64,000 bases of DNA from Minisyncoccota bacterium (GTDB lineage Bacteria > Patescibacteriota > Minisyncoccia > Phycocordibacterales > BOKC01): contig CP129473.1 in NCBI GenBank assembly GCA_030583745.1, positions 616,211 to 680,210 of the forward strand, read 5' to 3'. Position numbers and translations under genes: made by a program. Each line of letters begins with the position of its first letter. Position 1 is the first letter of the stretch. Under the pieces are notes generated by a model. That model saw only the letters and a program-made list of their open reading frames with translations. It did no database searches and was not told where the DNA came from. Of the stretch, positions 150 to 64,000 are shown piece after piece.

Positions 150-317
150 CATTTTCAAACCATCTAAACCCTATACCCCAGCAGACCCTATACCCTAATT
201 TGACATAAATCTCCTTTCTGCTATTCTTTTACAAGCTCACCAAGAGCTATTTTAATTAGGGTTAGGAGTTTTGAATTTCCCTAAACCCTAAACCCTAGTC
301 GCTAAACCCTAGTTCTC
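150..317. repeat. Telomere-like ACCCTA/CCCTAAA repeat tract upstream of rpsZ
   Basis: Several 'accctata', 'ccctaaaccctaaaccctag' and 'gctaaaccctag' units. The same family recurs at 39480-39515, 39860-39915 and, in degenerate form, 18490-18560. Confidence 0.6.
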
Positions 318-937: not shown

Positions 938-1471
938 ATGAGCAGAATAGGAAAAAAACCAATTTCTATACCGGAGAATACCACTGTCAGCTTAAACGAC
1001 GGCCTTTTGCTGGTAAAGGGCCCAAAAGGTGAGATTTCCAGAAAGTTTAACGACAATATCAAAATTTCTGTTGAGGATAATTCGGTAAAGTTAACACCTG
1101 CAAAGAAAGATAATTTCAGCCAAGTTCTCTGGGGAACCTACGCTTCTCATGTTGCCAATATGGTAAGTGGGGTAAACACCGGTTTTGAGAAAAAACTCGT
1201 AATAGAGGGTATTGGATTTAAAGCGGAGGTTAAGGGCGATAGCATTGTCTTAAACGTCGGTTTCTCTCATCCCGTAGAGTTAAAAATCCCTGGAGGGATA
1301 AATGTTGTGACCGAAAAAGATTCAATAAAAATTTCCGGGATTGATAAAGAAATGGTCGGGCAGTTTGCCGCTAAAGTAAGAGATGTTAAGAAACCAGAAC
1401 CTTACAAAGGAAAAGGTATTCATTACGAAGGAGAACAGATTAGAAGAAAACAAGGCAAGAAGTCTGCGTAA
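938..1471 (+). CDS. rplF: 50S ribosomal protein L6
   Basis: MSRIGKKPISIPENTTV... is a typical L6 start. The ORF could begin at 923, but 938 gives the canonical N-terminus. Confidence 0.93.
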   Translation: MSRIGKKPISIPENTTVSLNDGLLLVKGPKGEISRKFNDNIKISVEDNSVKLTPAKKDNFSQVLWGTYASHVANMVSGVNTGFEKKLVIEGIGFKAEVKGDSIVLNVGFSHPVELKIPGGINVVTEKDSIKISGIDKEMVGQFAAKVRDVKKPEPYKGKGIHYEGEQIRRKQGKKSA

Positions 1472-1489
1472 AAATTTTTAAACAAAGCT

Positions 1490-1828
1490 ATGAAAGTCTT
1501 AACAAAGATAGAAAGAAGGAGAAAGAGAATAAGGTCAAAAATTTTTGGCACGGTAGAGCGACCACGGGTTAGTGTGTTTCGATCCAACACTTCTATCTAC
1601 GCTCAAGTCATTGATGATAAAACCGGAGAGACATTGGTAGCTATTCATACTAAGAATGTTGAAGGTAAGAATCCTACCGAAAGAGCCAAACAAGCCGGCA
1701 AATTGTTGGCCGAGAAAGCTAAAGAAAAGAAAATTACAAAGATAGTTTTTGATAGAGGGGGTTATTTGTTTGGTGGTAAAATCAAGGCTTTAGCAGAAGG
1801 GTTGAGAGAGGGTGGTCTAGAATTTTAA
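1490..1828 (+). CDS. rplR: 50S ribosomal protein L18
   Basis: [20 protein letters not shown] motif. Confidence 0.93.
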
Positions 1829-1845
1829 TTTGTTTTTTAAAGATT

Positions 1846-2409
1846 ATGAAATCAGAAGAAAAAAAAGAGGAAAAAGCAGGGGCTGAAGTTGCAGACAACA
1901 AACAGCGTTCCGACAAGCCGGTCTTTGCAAAAAATAGAAGGCGCCGTTCGGACAAATTCGAAAAAGCCGGCCGACCTAAGCCGGAATTTGAACAGAAGAT
2001 CATAGAGATCCGCAGGGTTGCCAGAGTTGTTTCTGGTGGAAGACGCTTTAGTTTTAGTGTGGCCTTAGTTGCCGGCAATAGAAAAGGATCAGTCGGTGTC
2101 GGGCTTGGCAAGTCAAATGATACTCCGGTTGCGATTGAAAAAGCTTACAGAGACGCAAAGAAAAATTTGATAAATATATCTTTAACCAAAGACTCCTCTA
2201 TCCCACATTTGGTAAAAGGTAAATTTTCTAGCTCAAAAGTAATAATGATGCCGGCTCCTGGTAGAGGAATATTAGCCGGAAGCTCCGTTCGAGACGTGGT
2301 GGAATTGGCAGGAATAAAGAATATAAATTCTAAGGTTGTCTCCGGTAGCAAAAATAAGCTAAATAATGCCAAAGCGGCAATAGAAGCATTAGTTCAGTTT
2401 CAAGGTTAG
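1846..2409 (+). CDS. rpsE: 30S ribosomal protein S5
   Basis: IEIRRVARVVSGGRRFSFSVALVAGNRKGSVGVGLGKS is the S5 dsRBD/core. Confidence 0.95.
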   Translation: MKSEEKKEEKAGAEVADNKQRSDKPVFAKNRRRRSDKFEKAGRPKPEFEQKIIEIRRVARVVSGGRRFSFSVALVAGNRKGSVGVGLGKSNDTPVAIEKAYRDAKKNLINISLTKDSSIPHLVKGKFSSSKVIMMPAPGRGILAGSSVRDVVELAGIKNINSKVVSGSKNKLNNAKAAIEALVQFQG

Positions 2410-2430
2410 ATTTGAAATAAATTAAACACT

Positions 2431-2859
2431 ATGCAGTTACACAACTTAAAACCAAAAACCAAAAACAAAAAATCCCGCCAGGTTGGACGTGGAGGTAAGA
2501 GAGGAAAAACCTCCGGTCGTGGTATGAAGGGGCAAAAAGCTCGAGCCGGTCGCAAATTAAGACCGGAAGTTAGAGATTTGATAAAGCGTTTGCCTAAAAA
2601 AAGAGGTTATAGATTCAAGAGTTTTCAGATCAAGCCCGTAATTATTTCTCTACAAGATATAGAAGACAATTTTTCATCTGGCGAAGAGGTTAGTCCTGAT
2701 TCTTTATCTAAGAAAAATTTGATTACCAGAAAAGATTTGGAGATTGGAGTAAAAGTCTTGTCTGATGGTAAACTAACTAAAAAGATTGTTCTGTCCGGAT
2801 GTTTGTTTTCCAGTTCTGCAAAGTCTGCAATTGAGAAAGCCGGAGGCGAGGTAAAATAA
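2431..2859 (+). CDS. rplO: 50S ribosomal protein L15
   Basis: MQLHNLKPKTKNKKSRQVGRGGKRGKTSGRG. It follows rpsE directly, so there is no rpmD (L30) between them. Confidence 0.93.
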   Translation: MQLHNLKPKTKNKKSRQVGRGGKRGKTSGRGMKGQKARAGRKLRPEVRDLIKRLPKKRGYRFKSFQIKPVIISLQDIEDNFSSGEEVSPDSLSKKNLITRKDLEIGVKVLSDGKLTKKIVLSGCLFSSSAKSAIEKAGGEVK

Positions 2860-2863
2860 AAAT

Positions 2864-4135
2864 ATGAGCGGATTTAGCACAAAGTTAAAACTCATCTTCC
2901 AAGATAGGATTTTGAGAAAAAGAATATTTTTTGTCCTTGGGGCTTTAGTAGTCTTCAGGATGCTGGCATCCATCCCCATCCCCGGAGTTGACGCTTTTCA
3001 GTTAGAGAGGTTTTTTTCTGACAATCAATTTCTGGGTCTTTTGAACATTTTTTCCGGTGGTGGTTTGGCCAATCTTTCGATTGTGATGCTTGGTGTTGCG
3101 CCTTATATTACCGCTTCTATTATTATGCAGCTTCTGACCATTATGTCGCCCAAACTTAAAGCCATGTATCAGGAGGAGGGGGACGCGGGCAGGAAAAAAT
3201 TTAATCAGTATTCAAGATTTTTGACCGTGCCTCTTGCTTTTATTCAAGGTTTTGGTTTTTTGGCTTTTCTTCGCTCACAGGGCGTGCTTGCGGAAATGAC
3301 TTTAACTGATCAGTTGGTGAACGTTTTGATTATTGCCGCCGGTTCAATTTTGCTTATGTGGATTGGTGAATTAATTTCGGAGTTTGGTATTGGTAACGGA
3401 GTTTCAATATTAATTTTTGCCGGTATTGTCGCCGTCCTACCTTCAACTATTACCCAGCTCTTGTTTACTTTCGAAATATCGCAATTACCAATTTATCTTG
3501 CCGCCTTTGTTGCCGCTCTAGCGATAACTTACGGTGTGGTCTTTATTACTGAAGCCGAGAGGCCAATCCCAATTACTTATAGCAAGAGAATCAGGGGCTC
3601 TCGAGTCTTCGGTGGAGTTTCAACTTATTTACCGCTACGTTTGAATCAAGCTGGAGTAATTCCGATTATCTTTGCGCTCTCTATTCTTCTTTTCCCGCAA
3701 ATGGTCTTAAATTTTCTAGGTAGTATTGATAATTTGACAGTTCAAAATATTTCTCAAATTCTTTTGAGAATTGTTGAACAGCCGTGGATTTACGCGACAG
3801 TCTATTTTGGTCTGGTTTTCCTCTTCACCTATTTTTATACTGCTGTAACTTTTGACCCGAATACGACCGCGACTCATTTGCAGAAGAGTGGAGCTTTTAT
3901 CCCCGGAGTTCGTCCCGGAGAAAACACTTCTTCTTATGTCGGAAAGATTTTAACTCGCCTGACTTTGGTTGGCGCCTCGTTTTTGGGTATTATCGCTGTT
4001 CTACCCCTTGTTATGGTGGCTTTAACCGACATCACCGCTTTTGCTATCGGTGGCACAGGCCTTCTGATTGTTGTTTCGGTTGTGATTGATTTGATAAAGA
4101 AAATCGAAGCCCAGATAACAGCAAGAGAATATTAA
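2864..4135 (+). CDS. secY: Preprotein translocase subunit SecY
   Basis: 423-aa polytopic membrane protein in the conserved position after rplO; SecY-like TM pattern. Confidence 0.92.
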   Translation: MSGFSTKLKLIFQDRILRKRIFFVLGALVVFRMLASIPIPGVDAFQLERFFSDNQFLGLLNIFSGGGLANLSIVMLGVAPYITASIIMQLLTIMSPKLKAMYQEEGDAGRKKFNQYSRFLTVPLAFIQGFGFLAFLRSQGVLAEMTLTDQLVNVLIIAAGSILLMWIGELISEFGIGNGVSILIFAGIVAVLPSTITQLLFTFEISQLPIYLAAFVAALAITYGVVFITEAERPIPITYSKRIRGSRVFGGVSTYLPLRLNQAGVIPIIFALSILLFPQMVLNFLGSIDNLTVQNISQILLRIVEQPWIYATVYFGLVFLFTYFYTAVTFDPNTTATHLQKSGAFIPGVRPGENTSSYVGKILTRLTLVGASFLGIIAVLPLVMVALTDITAFAIGGTGLLIVVSVVIDLIKKIEAQITAREY

Positions 4136-6877: not shown

Positions 6878-7045
6878 TCAGCTGCTGACTCTTTCCGCCT
6901 TACTCAGGTAGAGTTTCCGGCAGAGTTGACTCGGCTGGGGTTTGGTTTCCCCCCTTTCTTCTTTTTCTCCTTCTTTCCGGCACACTTCCTGTTCCTCTGC
7001 CGGATGCGTTGTTGATTGAGGTTTTTCCACACGCTCTTTTTCCAT
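6878..7045 (-). CDS. Hypothetical small charged protein (55 aa, 2 Cys)
   Basis: Good SD AAGGAGA 7 nt before the ATG; a terminator hairpin plus T-run lies downstream on the minus strand at about 6840-6868. Confidence 0.4.
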   Translation of the reverse strand: MEKERVEKPQSTTHPAEEQEVCRKEGEKEERGETKPQPSQLCRKLYLSKAERVSS

Positions 7046-7136
7046 GGATTTCTCCTTCTTGGTGTGCGAGTCCAAAATATATGATAGCAAAATATCCACC
7101 TCGCGCAATGCAAGGTGTGGATTTTGACTGTTGGAG

Positions 7137-7481
7137 TTAGGAGATTTTTTTAATTACCCTCTTGAAAGTTTCCGGATGATTTTGTGCCAAGCCGGAGAGG
7201 ATTTTTCTGTCTAAAGCGATATTGGCTTTTTTCAGAGCACCAATCAGTTTACTGTAAGAAACTCCCTGCTCTTTTGAAGCGGCTCCTATCCGCACGTTCC
7301 AAAGTTTTCGGAAGTCATTTTTCTTATCTCTTCGGTGCGCAAAAGCGTGAGCGCCAGCATGAACTAGCGCTTCATATGCTTGTCTTTCTTTTTTTGACCT
7401 GCCATGTCTGTAACCCTTGGCTCTCTTTAAAACATTCTTTCTTGTTTTAAGGGCGTGAACCCCCTTCTTTACTCTTGTCAT
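7137..7481 (-). CDS. rplT: 50S ribosomal protein L20
   Basis: MTRVKKGVHALKTRKNVLKRAKGYRHGRSK... Confidence 0.95.
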   Translation of the reverse strand: MTRVKKGVHALKTRKNVLKRAKGYRHGRSKKERQAYEALVHAGAHAFAHRRDKKNDFRKLWNVRIGAASKEQGVSYSKLIGALKKANIALDRKILSGLAQNHPETFKRVIKKIS

Positions 7482-16274: not shown

Positions 16275-16847
16275 ATGGATTCAAAAAATAAAAAAATTAT
16301 AAAGGCTCCTCAGGGCAAAGCCACAGGGTATTGTCAGAACTCGCTTTACTCGTTCATTCGCGCGACAGAGCTGCGCAGTATTGAACCTATATTAGCTCCT
16401 CGGCCGTTGGCACGATGGAGTCGGCCTTTGGCCAGACGAAGTCGGCCGTCGGCACGATGGAGTCGGCCTTTGGCCAGACGAAGTCGGCTCGGAAATGTGA
16501 AAGCTTTGCTTTCCCATTTCTCTCGCTCTACGTCGCTAATAAAATTTTTAACTATTGCAATCGTCGCTTTTCTTTTTGCGCGTCTGGCTTTAAACCTGCC
16601 TCTTGTTTATTTGCCTCTAAATTTGTTTTTTGTTTCAAGCTATCTTTTGTTGTTTGCCTTGCTTCAGAAAAATTCCGCATGGTTTTTGTTTCTTCTGGCT
16701 ATCTTCTTGTCGGTTGATTCAATGTTTGGCACTTATTTTTTTGCCGGCGGTCGCATTGGTCAGATTGAATATTTTGGTACAATGGCTGTTAATTTATTAT
16801 TTACCACCTTTGGTATTTGGCGAGACAGGTTAAAATATTCCAGTTAA
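16275..16847 (+). CDS. Hypothetical membrane protein. Its N-terminal region carries a GC-rich tandem repeat (RPLARWSRPLARRSR...), so the start is uncertain.
   Basis: The C-terminal half is clearly polytopic, but the N-terminus crosses a 2x42-bp tandem repeat. Confidence 0.4.
   Translation: MDSKNKKIIKAPQGKATGYCQNSLYSFIRATELRSIEPILAPRPLARWSRPLARRSRPSARWSRPLARRSRLGNVKALLSHFSRSTSLIKFLTIAIVAFLFARLALNLPLVYLPLNLFFVSSYLLLFALLQKNSAWFLFLLAIFLSVDSMFGTYFFAGGRIGQIEYFGTMAVNLLFTTFGIWRDRLKYSS
16398..16490. repeat. GC-rich 42-bp tandem repeat (about 2.2 copies)
   Basis: 'ggccgt(t/c)ggcacgatggagtcggcctttggccagacgaagtc' x2. All three forward frames are open across it. Confidence 0.8.
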
Positions 16848-18489: not shown

Positions 18490-18594
18490 CAAATATGAGG
18501 CTCTAGGGCATTAGACCCTAGGCTCTAGGAAAATTCTGTTTTCTCCTAAGGCCTAGCGCCTAATCCGCCAGCTGGCGGACCTAATGCCTATCTG

Positions 18595-30607: not shown

Positions 30608-30626
30608 GTTTTTATGATTTGCGAAC

Positions 30627-30878
30627 GTCGCCTTCGCAAACCCACTGGCGGACTTCGTCACGCCGTAGGTTCGCTTCGGCGAATCGAATGTTGCCTTCGC
30701 AAACCCACTGGCGGACTTCGTCACGCCGTAGGTTCGCTTCGGCGAACCGAATGTTGCCTTCGCAAACCCACTGGCGGACTTCGTCACGCCGTAGGTTCGC
30801 TTCGGCGAACCGAATGTTGCCTTCGCAAACCCACTGGCGGACTTCGTCACGCCGTAGGTTCGCTTCGGCGAACCGAAG
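30627..30878. repeat. 63-bp tandem repeat x4 that directly abuts the tRNA-Ser 3' end
   Basis: Unit 'gttgccttcgcaaacccactggcggacttcgtcacgccgtaggttcgcttcggcgaaccgaat'. It is GC-rich and open in three frames; in the longer ORF it would encode a 4x 21-aa repeat FGSPKRTYGVTKSASGFAKAT. Confidence 0.85.
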
Positions 30879-30879
30879 G

Positions 30880-30965
30880 CGGAGGAGGTGGGATTTGAAC
30901 CCACGAGGGGATTTCTCCCCTACGGATTAGCAATCCGCTCCGTTAGACCACTCCGGCACTCCTCC
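30880..30965 (-). tRNA. tRNA-Ser(GCU)
   Basis: Acceptor ggaggag/ctcctcc, 3-bp D-stem, anticodon loop tTGCTAa, long variable arm aggggagaaatcccct, and T-arm gtggg-ttcaaat-cccac. Confidence 0.9.
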
Positions 30966-36776: not shown

Positions 36777-37838
36777 ATGAATTATAAACAAGAATTGGAC
36801 GAGCTCGTAAAAATTGTTTTGGCCGAAGGCGGGTCCGATTTGCATTTAGGCGAGGGTAGGAAGCCGACAATTAGAGTCAACGGCTCACTTATCCCAATTT
36901 CTAACAAAGAATCCATCAACCGTGAGTATATATACGGCATGATTGACGAGCTTTTGACCACTGAAAACAAAAAAAGGTTTTTGGCCTTGAAAAATGTTGA
37001 TTTCGCTTATAGTCATGTCAACAAAGAGAGATTTAGAGGTAACTCATATTTTCAACAAGGTCTTATAGCCATTTCTCTAAGATATATTCCGGAAAAAATC
37101 AGAACTTTTGAGGAGCTAAATTTGCCTCCGATTTTGGAGAATTTTACTGAAAAGAAGCAAGGTTTTTTCTTGGTTGTCGGACCGGTTGGTCAAGGTAAGA
37201 GCACGACATTGGCGGCCATGATTGAATTGATAAACCAAAGGCGTGCCGAGCACATAATCACTATCGAAGACCCGATTGAGTATGTTTTCAAGGAAAACAA
37301 ATCAATAATCGACCAGCGGGAAATCAGGACTGATAGTCCAGATTTTTACAGTGCTTTGAAAAATGTTTTCAGGCAGGATGTTAATGTAGTGATGGTCGGC
37401 GAAATGCGCGAGACCGAGACGATTGCAACGGCCGTTACCGCCGCCGAAACTGGACATTACATTCTTTCAACTCTACACACAAATGACGCGGCGCAAACTG
37501 TTGAGAGAGTAATTGATGCTTTTCCGGCTGCCCAACAAAACCAAATTCGTCTTCAGCTCGCTGGCAGTTTAACCGGAATATTTTCACAAAGATTGGTGCC
37601 GACAATTGCCGGTGGTTTGGTGCCAGCTTATGAGCTTTTGATAAATAATACCGCCGTCTCAAACGTCATTAGAGAAAACAGAGTTTATGAAATTTCGACC
37701 ATTATTGAAACCGGCTTAGGCGAAGGTATGATAAGTCTAAACCGCTCGCTTGTTGAATTGGTCCGGTCTGGACAGATTACCGCTGAAAATGCTTTTAGGT
37801 ATTCAAACGACGTGAAGAGTCTGGAAAAACTCCTGTAA
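36777..37838 (+). CDS. pilT: Twitching-motility retraction ATPase PilT
   Basis: Walker A VVGPVGQGKSTTLAAMI, HTNDAAQTVERV, GMISLN. Confidence 0.92.
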   Translation: MNYKQELDELVKIVLAEGGSDLHLGEGRKPTIRVNGSLIPISNKESINREYIYGMIDELLTTENKKRFLALKNVDFAYSHVNKERFRGNSYFQQGLIAISLRYIPEKIRTFEELNLPPILENFTEKKQGFFLVVGPVGQGKSTTLAAMIELINQRRAEHIITIEDPIEYVFKENKSIIDQREIRTDSPDFYSALKNVFRQDVNVVMVGEMRETETIATAVTAAETGHYILSTLHTNDAAQTVERVIDAFPAAQQNQIRLQLAGSLTGIFSQRLVPTIAGGLVPAYELLINNTAVSNVIRENRVYEISTIIETGLGEGMISLNRSLVELVRSGQITAENAFRYSNDVKSLEKLL

Positions 37839-37888
37839 TAGTTTTGTAGTTTGTAGTTGTTAGTTTATAGTTTGATATTAATAGACAG

Positions 37889-38242
37889 ATGGGCAGAGGA
37901 TATAAAGATTTAATTGTTTGGCAGAAGGCAAAAAATTTTTGTGTAAAAATATACAGAGTGACTGAGGAGTTTCCTAAATCAGAAACTTTTGGATTAGTAA
38001 GTCAATTAAGAAGGTCGTGTGTATCTATCCCGTCAAATATAGCAGAGGGCTCCAAAAGAAACAGTAAAAAAGACCAAAATCAATTTTACTCTATTGCCTA
38101 CGGTTCGGGAGCCGAGGTTGAAACCCAGTTGGATATTTCAAAAGAATTATTTCCAACATTAAAAGATAAAATTACCGCTATTGAAAATGAGCTGACTGAG
38201 ATTATGAAGATGTTAAATAAGTTAAGAAGTTATAAACTATAG
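37889..38242 (+). CDS. Four-helix-bundle protein (TIGR02436, the '23S rRNA intervening-sequence protein' family)
   Basis: LIVWQKA..F...Y.....FPK.E.FGL.SQLRR...SI..NIAEG; flanked by inverted 'tagttt' hexamer repeats. Confidence 0.85.
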   Translation: MGRGYKDLIVWQKAKNFCVKIYRVTEEFPKSETFGLVSQLRRSCVSIPSNIAEGSKRNSKKDQNQFYSIAYGSGAEVETQLDISKELFPTLKDKITAIENELTEIMKMLNKLRSYKL

Positions 38243-38276
38243 TCTATCAACCATAAACTAAAAACTATAAACTGAT

Positions 38277-39479
38277 ATGTTATTCAAATACCACGCCATA
38301 GATAATAGTGGAGCTGAAAAAGAGGGAATAATTGATGCTTTGAACAAAGATGTGGCTATCAGCTCTTTGCAAAACAGAGGTCTTGTAGTTTCGTCTGTTG
38401 AGCTTCTTGAGAAACCATCAATCTTAAGAAAAATTCCGTTTCTAAATAGGGTTGCTTCAAAAGATATTGTGATCGTGACCCGTCAGATGGCGACCTTGTT
38501 TGAGGCGCAAGTTTCAGCTTTAAGAGTTTTTCGTCTGCTGTCTTCGGAAACTGATCACCCGGTCTTGAAGAGGTCTTTGGGTCAAGTCGCTGATGATTTG
38601 CAGGAAGGAAGTTCAATTTCCGCCGCCTTGGAAAAGCATCCGCATATTTTTTCAGACTTCTATGTCAGCATGGTCAAAGTCGGTGAAGAGTCCGGAAGAT
38701 TGAGTCAGGTTTTTGTTTACCTCGCTGATTATTTGGACCGGACTTATGCCGTAACAACCAAAGCCAAGCACGCCCTAATTTATCCGACTTTTGTTATTAT
38801 CGCTTTTATAGGCGTGATGGTTCTTTTGTTTACTGTGGTTATTCCGAGAATTACCCCGATTTTGCTTGAGACAGGAGTTGATTTGCCGGTTTACACTAAA
38901 GCTGTTTTGTGGATGAGCTCTTTTCTTTTGAACTACGGAATTTATCTTTTGGTGGCACTTATTATCATGACTTTTGTCTTTTTTAAATATTTCCGGACAC
39001 AAAGCGGGCGTTTGACCTTGGATAATTTAAAACTTAGCGTGCCCTATGTCAGCAATTTGTACCAGAAACTTTATTTGACCAGAATTGCCGACAATATGAA
39101 TACTATGACTTCAAGCGGTGTTTCGATGATTCAAGCCATTGAATCAACTGCCGAAGTTGTTGACAATGAGATTTTCAAAGAGATTCTGCAGGACGCCGCT
39201 CTGAAAGTGAAAGCCGGCAAGTCGCTTTCTTCGGCTTTGGCCGAATATCGTGAAGTGCCGAGCATTATGACCCAGATGATAAAAGTTGGCGAAGAGACCG
39301 GCGAGCTTGCGCATATTTTGGATACTTTGGCGAAATTTTACCAACGTGAAGTTATCACCGCGGTTGACACCTTGACCGATATGATCCAGCCGGCAATCAT
39401 TGTCGTCTTGGGTCTTGGTGTCGGTTTTCTTCTCGCCGCTGTGCTTATGCCAATCTACAACATCGCCGGTGCATTTTAA
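38277..39479 (+). CDS. pilC: Type IV pilus inner-membrane platform protein PilC (GspF family)
   Basis: Duplicated T2SS-F domains and 3 TM segments. Confidence 0.9.
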   Translation: MLFKYHAIDNSGAEKEGIIDALNKDVAISSLQNRGLVVSSVELLEKPSILRKIPFLNRVASKDIVIVTRQMATLFEAQVSALRVFRLLSSETDHPVLKRSLGQVADDLQEGSSISAALEKHPHIFSDFYVSMVKVGEESGRLSQVFVYLADYLDRTYAVTTKAKHALIYPTFVIIAFIGVMVLLFTVVIPRITPILLETGVDLPVYTKAVLWMSSFLLNYGIYLLVALIIMTFVFFKYFRTQSGRLTLDNLKLSVPYVSNLYQKLYLTRIADNMNTMTSSGVSMIQAIESTAEVVDNEIFKEILQDAALKVKAGKSLSSALAEYREVPSIMTQMIKVGEETGELAHILDTLAKFYQREVITAVDTLTDMIQPAIIVVLGLGVGFLLAAVLMPIYNIAGAF

Positions 39480-39518
39480 GTAGGGTATAGGGTCTAGGGT
39501 ATATAGCCAATAGGGAAA

Positions 39519-39878
39519 ATGCAATCTTACAAAAATCTGATTGTTTGGCAAAAAAATTTCGAACTTGTTAAATCTGTCTATAACCTGACCAAACAATTTC
39601 CAAGAGAGGAATTATACGGACTGGTTTCACAGATGCGCCGGTCGGCAGTTTCCATTCCGTCTAACCTTGCAGAAGGTTATAGTAGGAAATCAAGACAAGA
39701 ATATATTCAGTTTGTAAGAATTGCTTTTGGTTCTGGGGCGGAATTAGAAACTCAACTTTTATTAGTTATAGACCTGAAACTGGCTAACCAAAACGAAACC
39801 GAAAAAGTGTATAATCAATTAGTGGAGGTAATGAAAATGCTGAACAAATTAATTTCTTCCCTAACCCCTAAACCCTAG
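39519..39878 (+). CDS. Second four-helix-bundle protein (TIGR02436), about 45-50% identical to the first copy
   Basis: Same LIVWQK...GLVSQMRRSAVSIPSNLAEG motif; flanked by inverted 'tagggt' hexamer repeats. Confidence 0.85.
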   Translation: MQSYKNLIVWQKNFELVKSVYNLTKQFPREELYGLVSQMRRSAVSIPSNLAEGYSRKSRQEYIQFVRIAFGSGAELETQLLLVIDLKLANQNETEKVYNQLVEVMKMLNKLISSLTPKP

Positions 39879-40103
39879 TGGCTAGTCGCTATACCCTAGT
39901 CTCTAAACCCTATCTCACTTATCCACACCCTCTTTGTAGTACCTTACCTCTTTGTTATAATTAAATTCGTCGTAAAGACAAATATTATTGGGATTTTGGT
40001 CGAATCAAGCCCAATTTTAAAAAAATTATTAGTAGAGTTAAAAGTTAAGAATTGTTCGCGCGAGCAATTTTAAAGTCTTAACAAGACTTAATAAAAATAA
40101 ATT

Positions 40104-40626: not shown

Positions 40627-41286
40627 ATGGGAATAAGAAACATAACTTTTTCCGAGGGTGAATTTTATCACGTATTCAACCGAGGTGTAGATAAAAGGGT
40701 TATTTTTATTGATAATGGCGATCGCGAACGTTTTGTCCGCCTTTTGTACGCGACAAACAGTACTATGGAAGCGCATATCAGCAATTATCAAGGAATTTCC
40801 TTGATAGAAATCCCGCGAGGGGAGACTATTGTAGACATTGGCGCGTGGTGCATTATGCCTAACCATTTTCATCTTCTGTTGAGGGAAAAAATTGAAAAAG
40901 GGATAAGTATTTTTATGAAAAAGCTATTAACGGGATATTCAATGTATTTTAATACTAAATATCAAAGGAAGGGTAAACTTTTTGAAGGGAAGTTTTCAGC
41001 AAAACATTTAAATACTGATAATTATTTAAAATACCAATACGCTTATATCCATTTGAACCCAATCGGCATTATTGAAAATGGTTGGAAACAAAAAAAGATT
41101 AATGACAAAGAAGGAGCCAAAAAATTTCTTTCTTCTTACGATTATTCAAGTTATTTAGACTATGCAAAATCAGACGACAGAGTAGAATCAGCCATTTTAG
41201 AAAAACCGGCATTTCCGGAATACTTTCAAACTTTCACTGAATTTAATTCAATGATTGATGAATGGATAAATTTTGAAGAATTATAA
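40627..41286 (+). mobile_element. REP-associated tyrosine transposase (RAYT, IS200/IS605-like HuH Y1 transposase)
   Basis: HuH motif CIMPNHFHLLL, the RAYT C-terminal motif YAYIHLNPIGIIENGW, and catalytic-Tyr region GYSMYFNTKYQ. It is flanked by cognate REP palindromes and contains one copy at 40785-40805. Confidence 0.8.
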
Positions 41287-42644: not shown

Positions 42645-43421
42645 ATGAAGAAAAATCAGAATCTTGAATCCGGCATCACACTGATTGAACTATTAGTCTC
42701 GATTTTTATTATTATCCTTATAACCTCTGTTGTTGTCTTTAACCATCGCGCCTTTACCGACAAACTGGAAATTACCAATCTGGCTTTTGATATTGCTCTC
42801 ACTATCAGGGAAGCGCAGGTTTCGGGCATTGCCGTAGAGCAGGCGCCTGATGTCGGGGGATTTGAAAACGCTTTCGGAGTCTCTTTTTTCATAAGGACAC
42901 AGCCGAGCGAGGGCGGAGATGTTAATAATGATAAAATTTTTATAAGATTCATAGATTTTGATTCGGAAGGTGATACTGATTTTTTAATGTATAACGGCAC
43001 TTACGATTGCACCGATTCAGAATGTTTGGAAAAAGTTGAAATAGGTCGTGGAAATAAAATAAGTCATATTTGCTACAGGAACGGAGGGGCTTTGAAGTGC
43101 GGTAGTCCGATAAGAAGTGAGCCGAGAGGGGTTGATATCGCCTTTTTAAGACCCAAGCCGGACGCTTCCATAAAATTCAGAGATGCGGGAGGGGAATATC
43201 TTTCAAGCGATGAAGGGGTATCTCTTGATAATTTGGAAGCGGTAATTTGTCTTGAGTCGCCCTTGGGTAGAAAAAAGAGCGTTCATGTTTTACCGACTGG
43301 TCAGATTTCGGTTCGAGACGGTGAAGGATGTCTTACACCTGGTGGCGGGCCGGGCGGAGGTGCTCCAGGAGGAGGTGGTCCAGGAGGAGGTGCTCCAGGA
43401 GGAGGTGGTCCACCCGGCTAA
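42645..43421 (+). CDS. Minor pilin or pseudopilin with a Gly/Pro-rich C-terminal tail
   Basis: Prepilin N-terminus GITLIELLVSIFII. The C-terminus GGGPGGGAPGGGGPGGGAPGGGGPPG comes from tandem ~21-bp repeats. Confidence 0.75.
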   Translation: MKKNQNLESGITLIELLVSIFIIILITSVVVFNHRAFTDKLEITNLAFDIALTIREAQVSGIAVEQAPDVGGFENAFGVSFFIRTQPSEGGDVNNDKIFIRFIDFDSEGDTDFLMYNGTYDCTDSECLEKVEIGRGNKISHICYRNGGALKCGSPIRSEPRGVDIAFLRPKPDASIKFRDAGGEYLSSDEGVSLDNLEAVICLESPLGRKKSVHVLPTGQISVRDGEGCLTPGGGPGGGAPGGGGPGGGAPGGGGPPG

Positions 43422-51250: not shown

Positions 51251-51298
51251 AGTGTTTCTACTATAAACTAAAAACTACCGACCACAAACCATTTCGGA

Positions 51299-51545
51299 GT
51301 CCCTATTGTACTCCGCTCGAACCTATTTTAGCAAAAATACCGAATGACCTGCCACGCGCCGCGCGCGTGGCGATGCGATACCAAATCGTACGCATTGGAG
51401 TTCGTGATGACTCTCAAACGCCGCCCAGCGCCTCCGCATCCGCTCCGGCGCTCCGCCCTCGCCCCGTTTCCGCTCTCATACTTTTCTTTTTTCGCGGGGG
51501 GATTTTTCAAAAATTGAATGGGCGGAAAACGGGGCTCGGTCGGCC
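51299..51545. repeat. IR1-L: a 247-bp GC-rich repeat that is identical, in inverted orientation, to 61304-61552
   Basis: The overlapping frame-translations are identical (82 aa SPYCTPLEPILAKIPNDLPRAARV...KTGLGR on opposite strands, and the 60-aa MKNPPAKKEK... ORF duplicated at 51328-51510 and 61343-61525). Confidence 0.9.
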
Positions 51546-52120
51546 TTCACCTAGGAAGGTGAAGGTGGGACGGCTTCCCATGCGGTGCCTCGTGACTTAT
51601 TCCTGTTTATATTGGCGTTCATGGTTAAAGGGATGGCACCCTCGGCATCCGCCTCGGGCTATTTCCGCTAGGGCTACGAGCGCCTAAATGCCTATGTGCG
51701 CTGCTTTTCCTCGCACTCCCGCTCTGCGGAGCGGGCGCTCGGGCAGCGCCTCTGTTTGGGGGAGAAAACGATTTTCTCCCCCAGCTTCAGGCTCCTCCTC
51801 GCAGTGGTTCACCAGAGTCTTCAGTGCTTAATTGTGTTTGTCTTTTGCACGCGCTTTGTGGCTTCGTTTAACGTGCCTTCGGAGTCCGCCTTCGCACAAC
51901 CCCCTCTTTTAGTTTTCATCCTTTCGTTTAGAGTGTCGCTTCCGCTACTAAACTTCTGTGACTTCGGTGTTCGTCGGCGCTCGTCCTTTAGCCCTGGACG
52001 CTCCTAGTGGAAATAGCCCGAGGCGCTGCCTTATGTGCTTGCCTGGCCGTGTTCACGGCTCCCACCCGTGCGCGCACAAACCCCGCCCGCTGACGCGGGC
52101 GGGGTTGCCTTATACTTTTT
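51546..52120. other. GC-rich, apparently non-coding structured region (candidate large ncRNA or a remnant of the element adjacent to IR1-L)
   Basis: No convincing ORF. Long-range complementarity 'gcctcgggctatttccgctagg' (51651-51672) against 'cctagtggaaatagcccgaggc' (52003-52025). An 11-bp perfect hairpin gggggagaaaa-cga-ttttctccccc at 51759-51783 and a terminal 10-bp hairpin ccccgcccgc-tgac-gcgggcgggg at 52081-52104. Confidence 0.5.
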
Positions 52121-61920: not shown

Positions 61921-63468
61921 ATGAAATATTTTCTATACGCTAGAAAATCTACTGATGTCGAGGACAAGCAAGTGCTTTCTATTGAAGCACAGCTTTCAGA
62001 GTTGAGAATTATTGCCAGAAATCAGGAGTTGGAAATTTTAGAAGAGTTTATTGAAAAACGAAGTGCAAAATCTCCAGGCCGCCCCACGTTCGGCGACATG
62101 ATGGCGCGGATTCAAAAGGGCGAAGCGAATGGCATTATTTGTTGGAAGGTAGACCGCCTCGCGAGAAATCCCGTGGATGGCGGACAAGTGCAGTGGCTTT
62201 TGCAGCAAGGTGTCATTCGCCACATTCAAACACACGACCGCTCGCACTATCCGAACGACAATGTGTTGATGATGTCCGTCGAGCTCGGGATGGCGAACGA
62301 GTACATACGCCAACTCTCCGCAAACACAGCACGGGGATTGCGGCAAAAAGCGAGGCAAGGAATTTATCCCGGACTCGCCCCTATCGGTTACATAAATGAT
62401 CCGCGCACCAAAACCATCCGCGTTCACAAGAAAAATGCCGCGCTGGTGCGCGAAATGTTTGAAAAGTACGCAAGCGGAAGCGCAACGCTCGACGGCCTCG
62501 CGACTTTTCTTGAAAACGCAGGCGTAATATCAAAAGGAAATCGTCGCGTCCATATCTCGCGCATCTCGTTCATTTTGCAAAATCCATTTTATTACGGACA
62601 CTTCCGCTACGCGGGCGAAGTGTACGAGGGAAATCACATGTCTCTCATTTCAAAAGCACTGTACGACAAGGCGAACGCAGTGCTTCGCGGACGTGGCCGG
62701 ACACTCGCCGTCAAAACCGATCCTGCGCCATACTGCGGACTCCTGCGTTGCGGCTTCTGCGGCATGGCAATCACGGCCGAGATGAAAGAGAAGCATCAGA
62801 AGAACGGGAATGTTCATCGCTACACATATTACCGATGTACACGCAAGAACAAGGCCGTGAGATGCAAAGAAGCGCCGATGCGAAGCGAGCTTTTGGACTC
62901 GCAACTTTCGGCGCTTCTTTCCGAATACACCATGTCGCAGGAGTGGGTATCTCCACTTTCGGAGATGCTGAATACAGAAGCCGCTAACGCTTCCAAAACG
63001 GCGGCGGAGGCCGTTCAAGAACTGCGAGACAAGTGCGAAAACATTTCTCGGCAAATAACGCGCTTGACGGACTTGTATGTTGCCGAGGACATCGAGCGCG
63101 AAGATTACTTGTCTCGCAGGCGTTCTCTTATGTCGGAACGCCGGACGATAGAAGAAAATATCGTCCGTCTTGAACGAGCCCCCGCTTTATGGGTTGAACC
63201 TGTCCGAAATTGGATAACGGACGCTTCAACACTGGACAAAATCGCGCAAGCGGAAGACCTCCTTTTGAAAAAATCATCCCTCCAAAAAATTTTCGGATTG
63301 AACCTCTCAATTCACGCGCGCGAAGCGCGCGGAAATCCCATCCCCCCTTATGCGGCGCTTCGCGCCGCCAAAACTTCTGCCCCTAAAAAGCAGTTGAGTT
63401 TGATTCTTGAGCCAACGGTCGGAATTGAACCGACGACCTCGCCCTTCGCTTTTACCCCTGTTTCCTAG
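61921..63468 (+). CDS. Large serine recombinase (resolvase/invertase catalytic domain, recombinase domain, zinc ribbon and coiled-coil)
   Basis: YARKSTDVEDKQVLSIEAQ holds the catalytic Ser; zinc ribbon CGLLRCGFCG...YYRC. The gene is GC-rich, about 55%. The ORF's last ~55 codons run through IR2-b and the antisense tRNA 3' exon, so the real stop is uncertain. Confidence 0.85.
   Translation: MKYFLYARKSTDVEDKQVLSIEAQLSELRIIARNQELEILEEFIEKRSAKSPGRPTFGDMMARIQKGEANGIICWKVDRLARNPVDGGQVQWLLQQGVIRHIQTHDRSHYPNDNVLMMSVELGMANEYIRQLSANTARGLRQKARQGIYPGLAPIGYINDPRTKTIRVHKKNAALVREMFEKYASGSATLDGLATFLENAGVISKGNRRVHISRISFILQNPFYYGHFRYAGEVYEGNHMSLISKALYDKANAVLRGRGRTLAVKTDPAPYCGLLRCGFCGMAITAEMKEKHQKNGNVHRYTYYRCTRKNKAVRCKEAPMRSELLDSQLSALLSEYTMSQEWVSPLSEMLNTEAANASKTAAEAVQELRDKCENISRQITRLTDLYVAEDIEREDYLSRRRSLMSERRTIEENIVRLERAPALWVEPVRNWITDASTLDKIAQAEDLLLKKSSLQKIFGLNLSIHAREARGNPIPPYAALRAAKTSAPKKQLSLILEPTVGIEPTTSPFAFTPVS
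63307..63410. repeat. IR2-b: copy of the 100-bp repeat that ends exactly at the tRNA-Thr(GGU) 3' end
   Basis: Identity with 61555-61655 (inverted) stops at 63410, which is the discriminator position of the minus-strand tRNA. Confidence 0.9.
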
Positions 63469-63691
63469 AAGCTTATCAGGGGGCTAGACTGTATCTTAGA
63501 CTTATTCGTAATTGTGAACTTAGTCTCCCTTGTCAGTCGTTCGGGCCTCCCAATTAAATTAACTGAGATGCCACGGTCTTAACCAAGCTCTGGTCTTTAA
63601 CCGTTATTCAGGATTCTCTAAAAGATTTCTCTTTTAGAGGGCAGAAATGCTTTCTACCATGGGCGTGCTCTACCAACTGAGCTACGTTGGC
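63410..63691 (-). tRNA. Intron-containing tRNA, most consistent with tRNA-Thr(GGU)
   Basis: The 5' exon reads gccaacg-ta-gctc-agttggta-gagc-a-cgccc-auggu. The 3' exon reads aa-gggcg-aggtc-gtcgg-ttcaatt-ccgac-cgttggc-u. The acceptor and anticodon stems are perfectly complementary across a 209-nt insertion in the anticodon loop. Confidence 0.75.
63447..63655 (-). ncRNA. Candidate group I intron (~209 nt) in the tRNA anticodon loop between positions 36 and 37
   Basis: The 5' splice site follows a U that forms a U-G pair within a P1 hairpin (GGU|AGAAA gca UUUCUGCC). P2 is a 9-bp hairpin (CUCUAAAAG...CUUUUAGAG). A P7-like pair AGACUA / AGUCUAG is present. The intron ends in G (..AAAAGCG|AA). An A-rich bulged P4-P6-like hairpin is also present. 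Confidence 0.55.
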
Positions 63692-63789
63692 GCATTAAAT
63701 TAATGCGTGGCTAAATCCTATTATATAAAATCACTTTTTTCAACACTTTTTCATGTTAAAATCAAAACTACGATCAGGAAATTGAGGCG

Positions 63790-63995
63790 CTCCTGCTTAT
63801 GCTCCCATGCCTCCCGCCAAAGAAGGCTTCGGCCTGAAAGATGGAAACAGGGTAAAGCGGATTAGATACCCGCTGTGGGTGGGTTGAATTCCCACCGTTA
63901 ACACTTTGTACCCCTGTATCTCCCGCCCGAAAGGGAAACCGGCGGCCCCGTTTAGCGGGGAGCCCTCACGCACGAAAAAGTGCGAGAGGGTTTTT
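63790..63995 (+). ncRNA. Candidate GC-rich structured RNA ending in a strong terminator
   Basis: Nested helices (acagggta...tacccctgt; gcgg-attagatac-ccgc; ggtggg-ttgaatt-cccacc) and a terminator 'ccctcacgcac gaaaaa gtgcgagaggg' plus TTTTTT. It contains only a 12-codon ORF. Confidence 0.35.
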
Positions 63996-64000
63996 TATTT

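Follow-up and report, generated by a model that had tools for sequence, protein, structure and literature searches.

Why do two small genes lie inside the type IV pilus operon of a Minisyncoccota bacterium, one on each side of pilC, and why are both framed by short repeats that run in opposite directions at their two ends? The locus is part of a stretch of 64,000 nucleotides (contig CP129473.1, positions 616,211 to 680,210; in the following called the window), in which the operon extends from 31.7 to 44 kb and comprises pilM, pilO, pilB, a response regulator gene, pilT, pilC, pilin genes and a prepilin peptidase gene. It is interrupted by two short open reading frames (ORFs) encoding four-helix-bundle (4HB) proteins of the family PF05635/TIGR02436, here named 4HB-1 and 4HB-2. 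In a preliminary description made from the sequence both had been regarded as self-contained cassettes. Each gene and its arrays behave as one unit when they are inherited, diversify or are exchanged, and the same architecture recurs at most of the related loci that were assessed and around a second gene family.

Two 4HB genes and their heptamer arrays

Both ORFs are found where the preliminary description had placed them and score far above the family cut-offs, with 133.2 and 136.8 bits for PF05635 (cut-off 33.8; profile positions 1-106 of 106 covered) and 128.6 and 129.2 bits for TIGR02436 (cut-off 24; E 1e-37 and 7e-38). The two proteins are 51% identical, and a search for further copies yielded no third gene of this kind in the 64-kb window. 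In a PDB search, for which 4HB-2 was the only query, the entries 2gsc (XCC0516; E 8e-23) and 2rld (E 8e-7) were retrieved, each of which contains five chains; XCC0516 is a toroidal homopentamer according to the literature (PMC4990558). 4HB-1 matches the Avd family of PHROG (E 4e-9). None of the PADLOC defence models matched the 4HB proteins or the GxxExxY and RAYT-like proteins described below.

Table 1 Features of the window that are discussed in the text (positions counted from its first nucleotide)
Feature	Position	Strand	Basis or remark
pilT, host gene 5' of cassette 1	36777..37838	+	PF00437 T2SSE, E 1.3e-40
Cassette 1, upstream array, five units: TAGTTTTG TAGTTTG TAGTTGT TAGTTTA TAGTTTG	37839..37874	+	sequence
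4HB-1, 117-aa four-helix-bundle protein (PF05635/TIGR02436)	37889..38242	+	between pilT and pilC
Cassette 1, downstream array, six N4-CTA units (ATAAACTA-type, two degenerate)	38232..38274	+	sequence
pilC, host gene separating the two cassettes	38277..39479	+	PF00482 T2SSF, E 4e-58
Cassette 2, upstream array: TAGGGTA TAGGGTC TAGGGTA, TA, TAGCCAA TAGGGAA	39481..39517	+	sequence
4HB-2, 119-aa four-helix-bundle protein (PF05635/TIGR02436)	39519..39878	+	between pilC and first pilin gene
Cassette 2, downstream array, eight N4-CTA units (CCCTAAC … CCCTATC)	39857..39912	+	sequence
Inverted-array element without cargo, filling the gatC-gatA spacer (TCTAAAC-type and TTAGAGT-type arms)	47567..47796		fold z -3.96
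Hairpin without cargo, TAG arrays followed by CTA arrays, beside the 5' end of the tmRNA gene	18504..18590		sequence
Cluster of CCCTA-type heptamer arrays (unit type of cassette 2) and inverted TTAGGGT stretch	158..315		ends just 5' of an ORF starting at 318
Solo half-array CTATAAACTAAAAACTA	51261..51281		15 identical bases with the downstream array of cassette 1; beside a tRNA gene

All sequence strings quoted in the preliminary description can be located in the window, but the repeat unit, taken there for a hexamer, is a heptamer consisting of TAG and four further bases upstream of the gene and of four bases and CTA downstream of it, with a period of 7 and occasionally 8 nt. In cassette 1 the upstream TAG triplets stand at 37839, 37847, 37854, 37861 and 37868, the first of them in frame directly after the TAA stop codon of pilT. 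On the other side CTA, or a degenerate form of it, recurs every 7 nt from 38237 to 38272; this array overlaps the stop codon of 4HB-1 and stops 2 nt short of the ATG of pilC. The upstream array of cassette 2 starts 1 nt past the stop codon of pilC (TAG at 39481, 39488, 39495, 39504 and 39511), and its downstream array holds eight CTA triplets at an exact spacing of 7 nt (39861 to 39910), the first three units lying within the end of the 4HB-2 ORF. Thus, both downstream arrays start within the last codons of their ORFs.

The arms of each cassette are complementary to one another over 31 nt at 81% and over 25 nt at 88% in cassette 1 and over 23 nt at 87% in cassette 2. The inverted flanks reported earlier are therefore real as complementary arms (81-88%), but they are not exact reverse complements. 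Local alignment of the flanks gave scores of 43 and 31 compared to means of 18.3 and 15.5 for dinucleotide-shuffled sequence, and none of 2000 shuffles reached the observed values. When all 72 ORFs of the window were subjected to the same test, the two 4HB genes ranked first and second. Pairing of the flanks into a stem of the kind known from intervening sequences (IVS), raised as a possibility in the preliminary description, is predicted in minimum-energy as well as in centroid folds (z -3.0 and -3.9), the upstream array pairing with the downstream array and the whole ORF being looped out. A simple scan of the flanks revealed neither a sigma-70-like promoter nor an intrinsic terminator. Since a recognisable promoter or terminator of its own is missing, the cassette is probably transcribed together with the operon.

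Distribution, host stop codons and a second cargo family

The generality of this arrangement was assessed with 80 loci containing relatives of the 4HB genes, taken from species-representative genomes that are nearly all metagenome-assembled genomes of the candidate phyla radiation (CPR)/Patescibacteria. Complementary flanks at z>=4 are present in 61 of 78 loci, and 81% surpass the 95th percentile of a control set of 315 ORFs drawn from these loci. The arrays consist again of TAG-N4 units upstream and N4-CTA units downstream, with 4.6 TAG per 70 nt over a background of 0.71, and consecutive TAG triplets are 7 nt (144 cases) or 8 nt (58 cases) apart. An unbiased search for 5-mers gave enrichments of 14-29x, and the autocorrelation peaks at 7 with a harmonic at 14. 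The most frequent array length is four to five units per side (28-35 nt); the last TAG precedes the ATG by a median of 11 nt, and in most cases there is an overlap between the first CTA and the stop codon of the cassette ORF. The four variable bases differ among cassettes and agree between the arms of one cassette (1.09 vs 1.87 mismatches). Furthermore, the array type correlates with the similarity of the encoded proteins (Spearman -0.24, p 8e-36). None of the 80 loci was found within rRNA by a screen for conserved rRNA motifs, and the window itself contains no rRNA; the preliminary description was too narrow in naming 23S rRNA IVS as the other place from which these proteins are known.

The cassettes are closely packed between their neighbours (median gaps 39 and 27.5 nt). 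In 73 of 78 cases they share the direction of the gene upstream, compared to a baseline of 85% (p=0.04), and the upstream neighbours of 77 cassettes span 92 Pfam families, mostly with housekeeping functions. TAG is the stop codon of 56 of 73 genes (77%) that immediately precede a cassette, compared to 57 of 239 controls (24%; odds ratio 10.5, p 5e-16). An array TAG, most often that of the first unit, itself terminates the host gene in 36 of 61 cases. As an observation it can be stated with good confidence that array TAGs serve as host stop codons; that this use is a function under selection has about an even chance. The period of 7 or 8 nt places TAG in all reading frames, and stops in all three frames occur in 65% of the 4HB arrays, 20% of the arrays of the GxxExxY family introduced below and 10% of the controls. 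Three-frame termination was rejected as a universal purpose of the arrays, given its low frequency in GxxExxY arrays and its absence from some cyanobacterial arrays. In the window as a whole the stop codons are TAA (40), TAG (15) and TGA (11), leaders are A/T-rich and a Shine-Dalgarno-like sequence is found in 4 of 66 genes.

A second family uses the same architecture. In some strains the slot between pilT and pilC is filled by a GxxExxY/PDDEXK_3 gene in place of the 4HB gene (in contig L006 at 7006-7437, with 71.3 bits for TIGR04256 over a cut-off of 35; PF13366 is also listed for this gene). Among 62 metagenomic loci with relatives of this gene 54 could be tested, and 40 of these have complementary flanks at z>=4. 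The core of these arrays reads (A)TACGAAT before the gene and ATTCGTA after it (enrichment 19-22x), and their period of about 9-10 is weaker. A divergent 4HB clade (contigs L157 and L072) carries yet another pair, CTAATTNN upstream and NNAATTAG downstream. Because 4HB, divergent 4HB and GxxExxY arrays have distinct cores, the core motif goes with the cargo family.

Contig L072 contains three 4HB cassettes within 2.4 kb (1258-3640), two of which belong to the divergent clade and have identical CTAATT-type arrays; these two bracket a host ORF of 221 aa, which itself then looks as if it were flanked by inverted repeats. The idea that the cassettes of one genome must carry different units was abandoned on account of this pair.

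Outside the CPR six copies on cyanobacterial plasmids were checked, with sites including cas6-cas4 and cmr2-cmr3. Inverted arrays were present in three of them, for example TAGGGTG/CACCCTA in Calothrix (z 17.6) and AAGGGAA/TTCCCTT in Geminocystis (z 9.6). A Pseudanabaena plasmid (contig L165, NZ_CP112875.1, ~1400-1970) has its 4HB gene between cas6 and cas4 with arrays of GCTAAAA or GCCAAAA on both sides, which are direct and not inverted and number at least 14 units upstream. Other cyanobacterial 4HB copies lie inside cmr2-cmr3 and beside integrase genes.

Exchange between strains and elements without cargo

Strains were compared by means of contigs whose PilC or PilT is 100% identical to that of the window. 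Between pilT and pilC they have either the 4HB-1 cassette, with six or eight downstream units (eight in L157), or a GxxExxY cassette. Between pilC and the first pilin gene four alleles exist, namely the 119-aa type, a 116-aa type (56% identity; arrays of TAGGCNN/GCCTAGC), a chimera of both with 100 aa and a divergent 118-aa type. The two slots assort independently, and strain L008 shares the distal five units of the downstream array of cassette 2 with the window. The comparison of pilT-pilC-pilA synteny proposed in the preliminary description thus revealed occupants that vary between strains but no empty site, all slots being occupied in the strains with identical PilC or PilT.

The replaced segment extends from the stop codon of pilT to the start codon of pilC, accompanied by one single-nucleotide polymorphism at -7 and a synonymous cluster at +3, +5 and +8; a further 4.3 kb upstream of it is identical between the strains. 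The cluster, seen on comparing window positions 38277-38285 with contigs L006, L007 and L008, consists of three synonymous changes in the first three codons after the pilC ATG and is found only with a GxxExxY cassette upstream. It suggests that the exchange also takes in the beginning of pilC or, alternatively, that this start region and the adjoining array adapt to one another. Including its flanks, the cassette-1 family has 72-73% nucleotide identity to cassettes which are located between rpsG and fusA in two other genomes. Gene and both arrays are swapped as units between strains, the same family is present at a different site in other genomes and cassettes follow genes of many families, so that the earlier notion of self-contained cassettes holds; we regard the cassette with high confidence as the unit of inheritance and exchange. 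The swaps themselves may be ordinary homologous recombination via the conserved flanking genes.

The window also contains inverted arrays without cargo (Table 1), and such array-only elements are present at other CPR loci, too. The element between gatC and gatA is specific to the strain of the window and is missing from 10 of 10 other strains with identical GatC. Here gatC ends on TAG and is followed by 230 nt, compared to TGA and a spacer of 32 nt in the ten other strains, and gatA has one extra codon at its start. In this sole comparison of a filled and an empty site the whole spacer was replaced without duplication of a target site.

Directly before the CCCTA-type arrays, positions 1-150 form a GC-rich segment ending in a strong hairpin and a T-run (cccccgcg…cgcggggttttt), which may be the 3' end of an RNA or gene cut by the edge of the window. 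Two regions, 51290-52100 and 62000-64000, have a GC content of about 49-55% compared to 40% overall, and neither yields an Rfam match that attains the gathering score of its family; the first (51.3-52.1 kb) has no gene-like ORF and lies beside the tRNA gene and the solo half-array at 51261-51281.

Repeats of other kinds occur as well. A RAYT-like Y1 transposase gene (40627-41286) lies between two pilin genes, with 31 bits for PF01797, above the cut-off, and 38.6 bits for REP_Tyr_transpos, below the cut-off of 80; it is missing from contigs L001 and L002. A 21-nt palindrome, TATCAAGGAA(T/A)TTCCTTGATA, is present five times (40496, 40594, 40786, 42050 and 42069; none expected), once inside the RAYT-like ORF and twice, overlapping and in frame, in the prepilin peptidase gene, where it encodes the peptide YQGNSLI. 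A 63-nt tandem repeat (30622-30877; 4.1 copies, 98% identity) lies within a 94-aa ORF and abuts a tRNA gene (30880-30965, minus strand); in contig L002 there are apparently fewer copies. In-frame repeats are found in the Gly/Pro-rich tail of a 258-aa ORF of the pilus operon with a pilin-like N-terminal motif (15/30 nt; 43356-43412) and in a 190-aa ORF (21/42-nt tandem repeat; 16400-16488).

Possible nature of the cassettes and relation to known elements

An element consisting of an S23p ORF, heptamers and a terminal stem is already known as a kind. The closest known system is the S23p IVS of Coxiella burnetii, found also in Leptospira and others, whose ORF belongs to the same family (PF05635/S23p). 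The IVS in the Coxiella 23S rRNA is 428 nt long, has two to three strain-variable tandem heptamers upstream of the S23p ORF and a 28-bp terminal stem which is cut in vitro by RNase III of Coxiella and E. coli, and it has long been suspected to be a mobile element (PMC4990558). 23S_rRNA_IVP ORFs occur also in rRNA insertions of CPR bacteria (PMC11270868). The cassettes described here resemble the IVS in length (~430-440 nt vs 428-444 nt in Coxiella), in the tandem heptamers of strain-variable number just upstream of the ORF and in the sense orientation of the ORF within the (here probable) host transcript (PMC4990558), as well as in the complementary terminal arms, which measure 25-31 nt at 81-88% here and close the stem in the predicted folds, and about 28 bp in Coxiella. 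However, they lie between protein-coding genes and not in helix 9, 25 or 45 of 23S rRNA, their heptamers are TAG-cored, stand on both sides and supply the upstream host stop, and the slot is polymorphic between strains.

From these likenesses a composite reading can be drawn, to which we give nearly an even chance, namely that each 4HB gene is the cargo of an IVS-type selfish cassette in operon spacers. Such a cassette of about 0.44 kb would be composed of four to five TAG-N4 heptamers, a linker of ~11-20 nt, the PF05635 ORF and five to eight N4-CTA heptamers, and would take up the whole spacer between two host genes, here of the type IV pilus operon. Translation of the upstream host gene would end on the TAG arrays. 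As the arrays are complementary, they can zip into a stem in the transcript, which would comprise about 30 bp (four to five heptamers, 28-35 bp) and loop the cassette out. RNase III needs about two helical turns of duplex, a length which such a stem would provide. The stem would be the form which is cut by this enzyme in the homologous S23p IVS of 23S rRNA, and by this analogy processing of the cassette transcripts by RNase III is possible, at somewhat less than an even chance. Movement of the cassettes would probably rely on recombination, be it at the arrays or beside them, or via the conserved neighbouring genes.

Several observations weigh against this reading. Where the arms do not match, G:U is not enriched over A:C (60 vs 65 in 4HB, 61 vs 53 in GxxExxY cassettes), and unit variants are not mirrored between the arms (permutation test with 45 cassettes, mean z 0.27, none with p<=0.05). 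An evolutionary signature of a specific helix in the sense RNA is thus missing, which argues that such pairing is not the whole story. A stem needs no conserved core, yet each cargo family keeps one, be it TAG, CTAATT or CGAAT. The three-frame stops of the 4HB arrays (65%) are not a property of GxxExxY arrays (20%) or of some cyanobacterial arrays. Neither a signature of RNase III nor an rnc gene was found within the window, and for the cassettes no transposase, target-site duplication or clean pair of empty and filled sites with simple junctions was found. From the suggestion of a mobile or homing unit the exchange as a unit can therefore be retained, but not homing or a particular mechanism of transposition.

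The conserved cores direct attention to the encoded proteins. According to an alternative which we consider somewhat unlikely, the arrays are mainly binding sites of the cassette's own oligomeric protein, and the complementarity of the arms is a by-product of having the same sites at both ends. A toroidal 4HB pentamer would sit on five TAG (or UAG) triplets spaced by four bases, and the PD-(D/E)XK protein of the GxxExxY family would bind or cut the CGAAT/ATTCG repeats; the inverted sites would mark the ends of the element in the manner of subterminal transposon repeats or act on the mRNA in an autoregulation of the HutP/TRAP type. This would account for a core that follows the cargo (TAG-N4 in the main 4HB clade, CTAATTNN in the divergent clade, CGAAT/ATTCG with GxxExxY), for the array type following protein similarity and for the lack of both wobble bias and mirrored unit order, and copies consisting of arrays alone could be derived, non-autonomous forms. 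Five units per side, the modal number, are matched by the five chains deposited in 2gsc and 2rld and by the toroidal homopentamer XCC0516 (PMC4990558). In addition, a precedent exists in HutP, a protein ring that reads UAG-N4 repeats with sequence-independent spacers (PMC2425495). However, none of the PF05635 or PF13366 proteins is known to bind a specific sequence, no catalysis of DNA mobility is known for four-helix bundles, and the correlation is explained just as well if gene and array are inherited together. Some cyanobacterial copies fit poorly, their arrays being direct, numbering as many as 14 units or lacking TAG in the core, and the Coxiella protein appears not to be made (PMC4990558).

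A wider view is unlikely in our opinion. It takes the large paralogous families PF05635 and PF13366 as cargo of a hitherto unrecognised class of minimal mobile elements, each with one small ORF whose oligomeric product would read its own family-specific arrays at both ends (five TAG-N4 units per pentamer in the case of 4HB) and thereby drive or control the spread of the cassette. These elements would reside in operon spacers and rRNA loops, overwriting the sequence from the host stop to the next start, and the 23S IVS would be the rRNA-resident minority.

The cassettes could also be resident and not mobile. In that case the arrays would be host hairpins of an ordinary kind, serving in rapidly evolving spacers as terminators, stabilisers of the mRNA or stop-codon pads, the small genes would be domesticated, and strain differences would arise only by homologous recombination of diverged alleles. 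Replaced segments that run exactly from stop to start codon with few synonymous changes in the flanking genes (-7, +3, +5, +8) fit such an allelic exchange, both slots are filled in all strains seen and neither a transposase nor a target duplication was found. Nevertheless, this explanation is very unlikely, for it has to accommodate unrelated families (4HB and GxxExxY) in one slot, the same cassette family between rpsG and fusA in other genomes, neighbours spanning 92 Pfam families and the gatC-gatA element which is missing from 10 of 10 strains with identical GatC.

Still less likely is a movement in trans, in which the cassettes would be non-autonomous DNA transposons resembling miniature inverted-repeat transposable elements (MITEs) and served, for instance, by the RAYT-like Y1 enzyme. 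Inverted terminal repeats, copies without cargo, presence/absence polymorphism and a Y1_Tnp gene 0.7 kb off speak for it. However, the termini differ between copies beyond a 3-nt core and are unsuited to a sequence-specific transposase, the RAYT-like gene has its own distinct 21-nt palindromes, no target-site duplication is seen, and contigs L001 and L002 contain both cassettes without the RAYT-like gene. Finally, chance similarity in AT-rich, low-complexity sequence, for which the GC content of 40% and the repetitive spacers might be cited, is refuted by the shuffles (0/2000), by the top two ranks among 72 window ORFs and by the recurrence of the pattern in 61 of 78 independent loci.

Comparison with other known elements yields partial likenesses. 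Cyanobacterial short tandemly repeated repetitive (STRR) sequences are intergenic direct repeats, and their unit is a heptamer. Correia/ERIC-type MITEs are co-transcribed inverted-repeat elements in operon spacers, some of which are cut by RNase III; they have conserved terminal repeats and no ORF, unlike the cassettes. An assignment to insertion sequences or MITEs was rejected, as the cargo is 4HB or GxxExxY and the terminal units differ beyond the 3-nt core. REP/RAYT (REPIN) systems likewise have one small gene between inverted repeats and gene-less repeat copies scattered in the genome, but their cargo is a Y1 HUH transposase and their repeats are fixed 21-nt palindromes in place of variable tandem heptamers around 4HB or GxxExxY genes. 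Integron cassettes are also promoterless single-ORF units; this assignment was discarded, since an integron has a single 3' attC and an adjacent integrase with attI, whereas here repeats stand on both sides of the ORF and the operon contains no integrase.

Intergenic direct repeats of the heptamer TAACTGA are known from Beggiatoaceae, cyanobacteria and Bacteroidetes (PMC4679880). These tandem 7-mers in spacers often end 1 nt before a start codon, provide stops in three frames and may extend into the 3' end of the preceding ORF (PMC4679880); they are direct only, have one genome-wide sequence and no reported cargo, in contrast to the cassette-specific inverted pairs. The RNA sites of HutP/TRAP resemble the arrays in their UAG triplets with four non-specific bases (7-nt units) and in the symmetric protein ring (PMC2425495), but these proteins are not homologous to 4HB, for which binding is putative. 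Avd, the accessory protein of diversity-generating retroelements, is a pentameric four-helix bundle of the same fold family (matches to PF22296 and phrog_3206). An identity with Avd was rejected with 26.9 and 33.2 bits for NF033474 (equivalog cut-off 80) and with pilT, pilC and a pilin gene as neighbours; neither a reverse transcriptase nor template/variable repeats adjoin the cassettes.

In the literature searched on TIGR02436, PF05635 and GxxExxY no description of the flanks was found, nor of the prevalence outside rRNA, the TAG rule with array TAGs as host stops, the family-specific arrays of GxxExxY, the swapping of slots at strain level or array-only derivatives. CPR bacteria and cyanobacteria abound in genes of PF05635 and PF13366, which are catalogued as 'functionally uncharacterized' and have mostly been treated as curiosities of 23S IVS. 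In annotation it should be borne in mind that the element contributes part of the 3' end of the host gene upstream and part of the translation start region of the host gene downstream. Regarding these genes as cassettes accounts for a class of hypervariable spacers that recurs in reduced genomes and makes the nature of IVS ORFs and the spread of IVS accessible to experiment.

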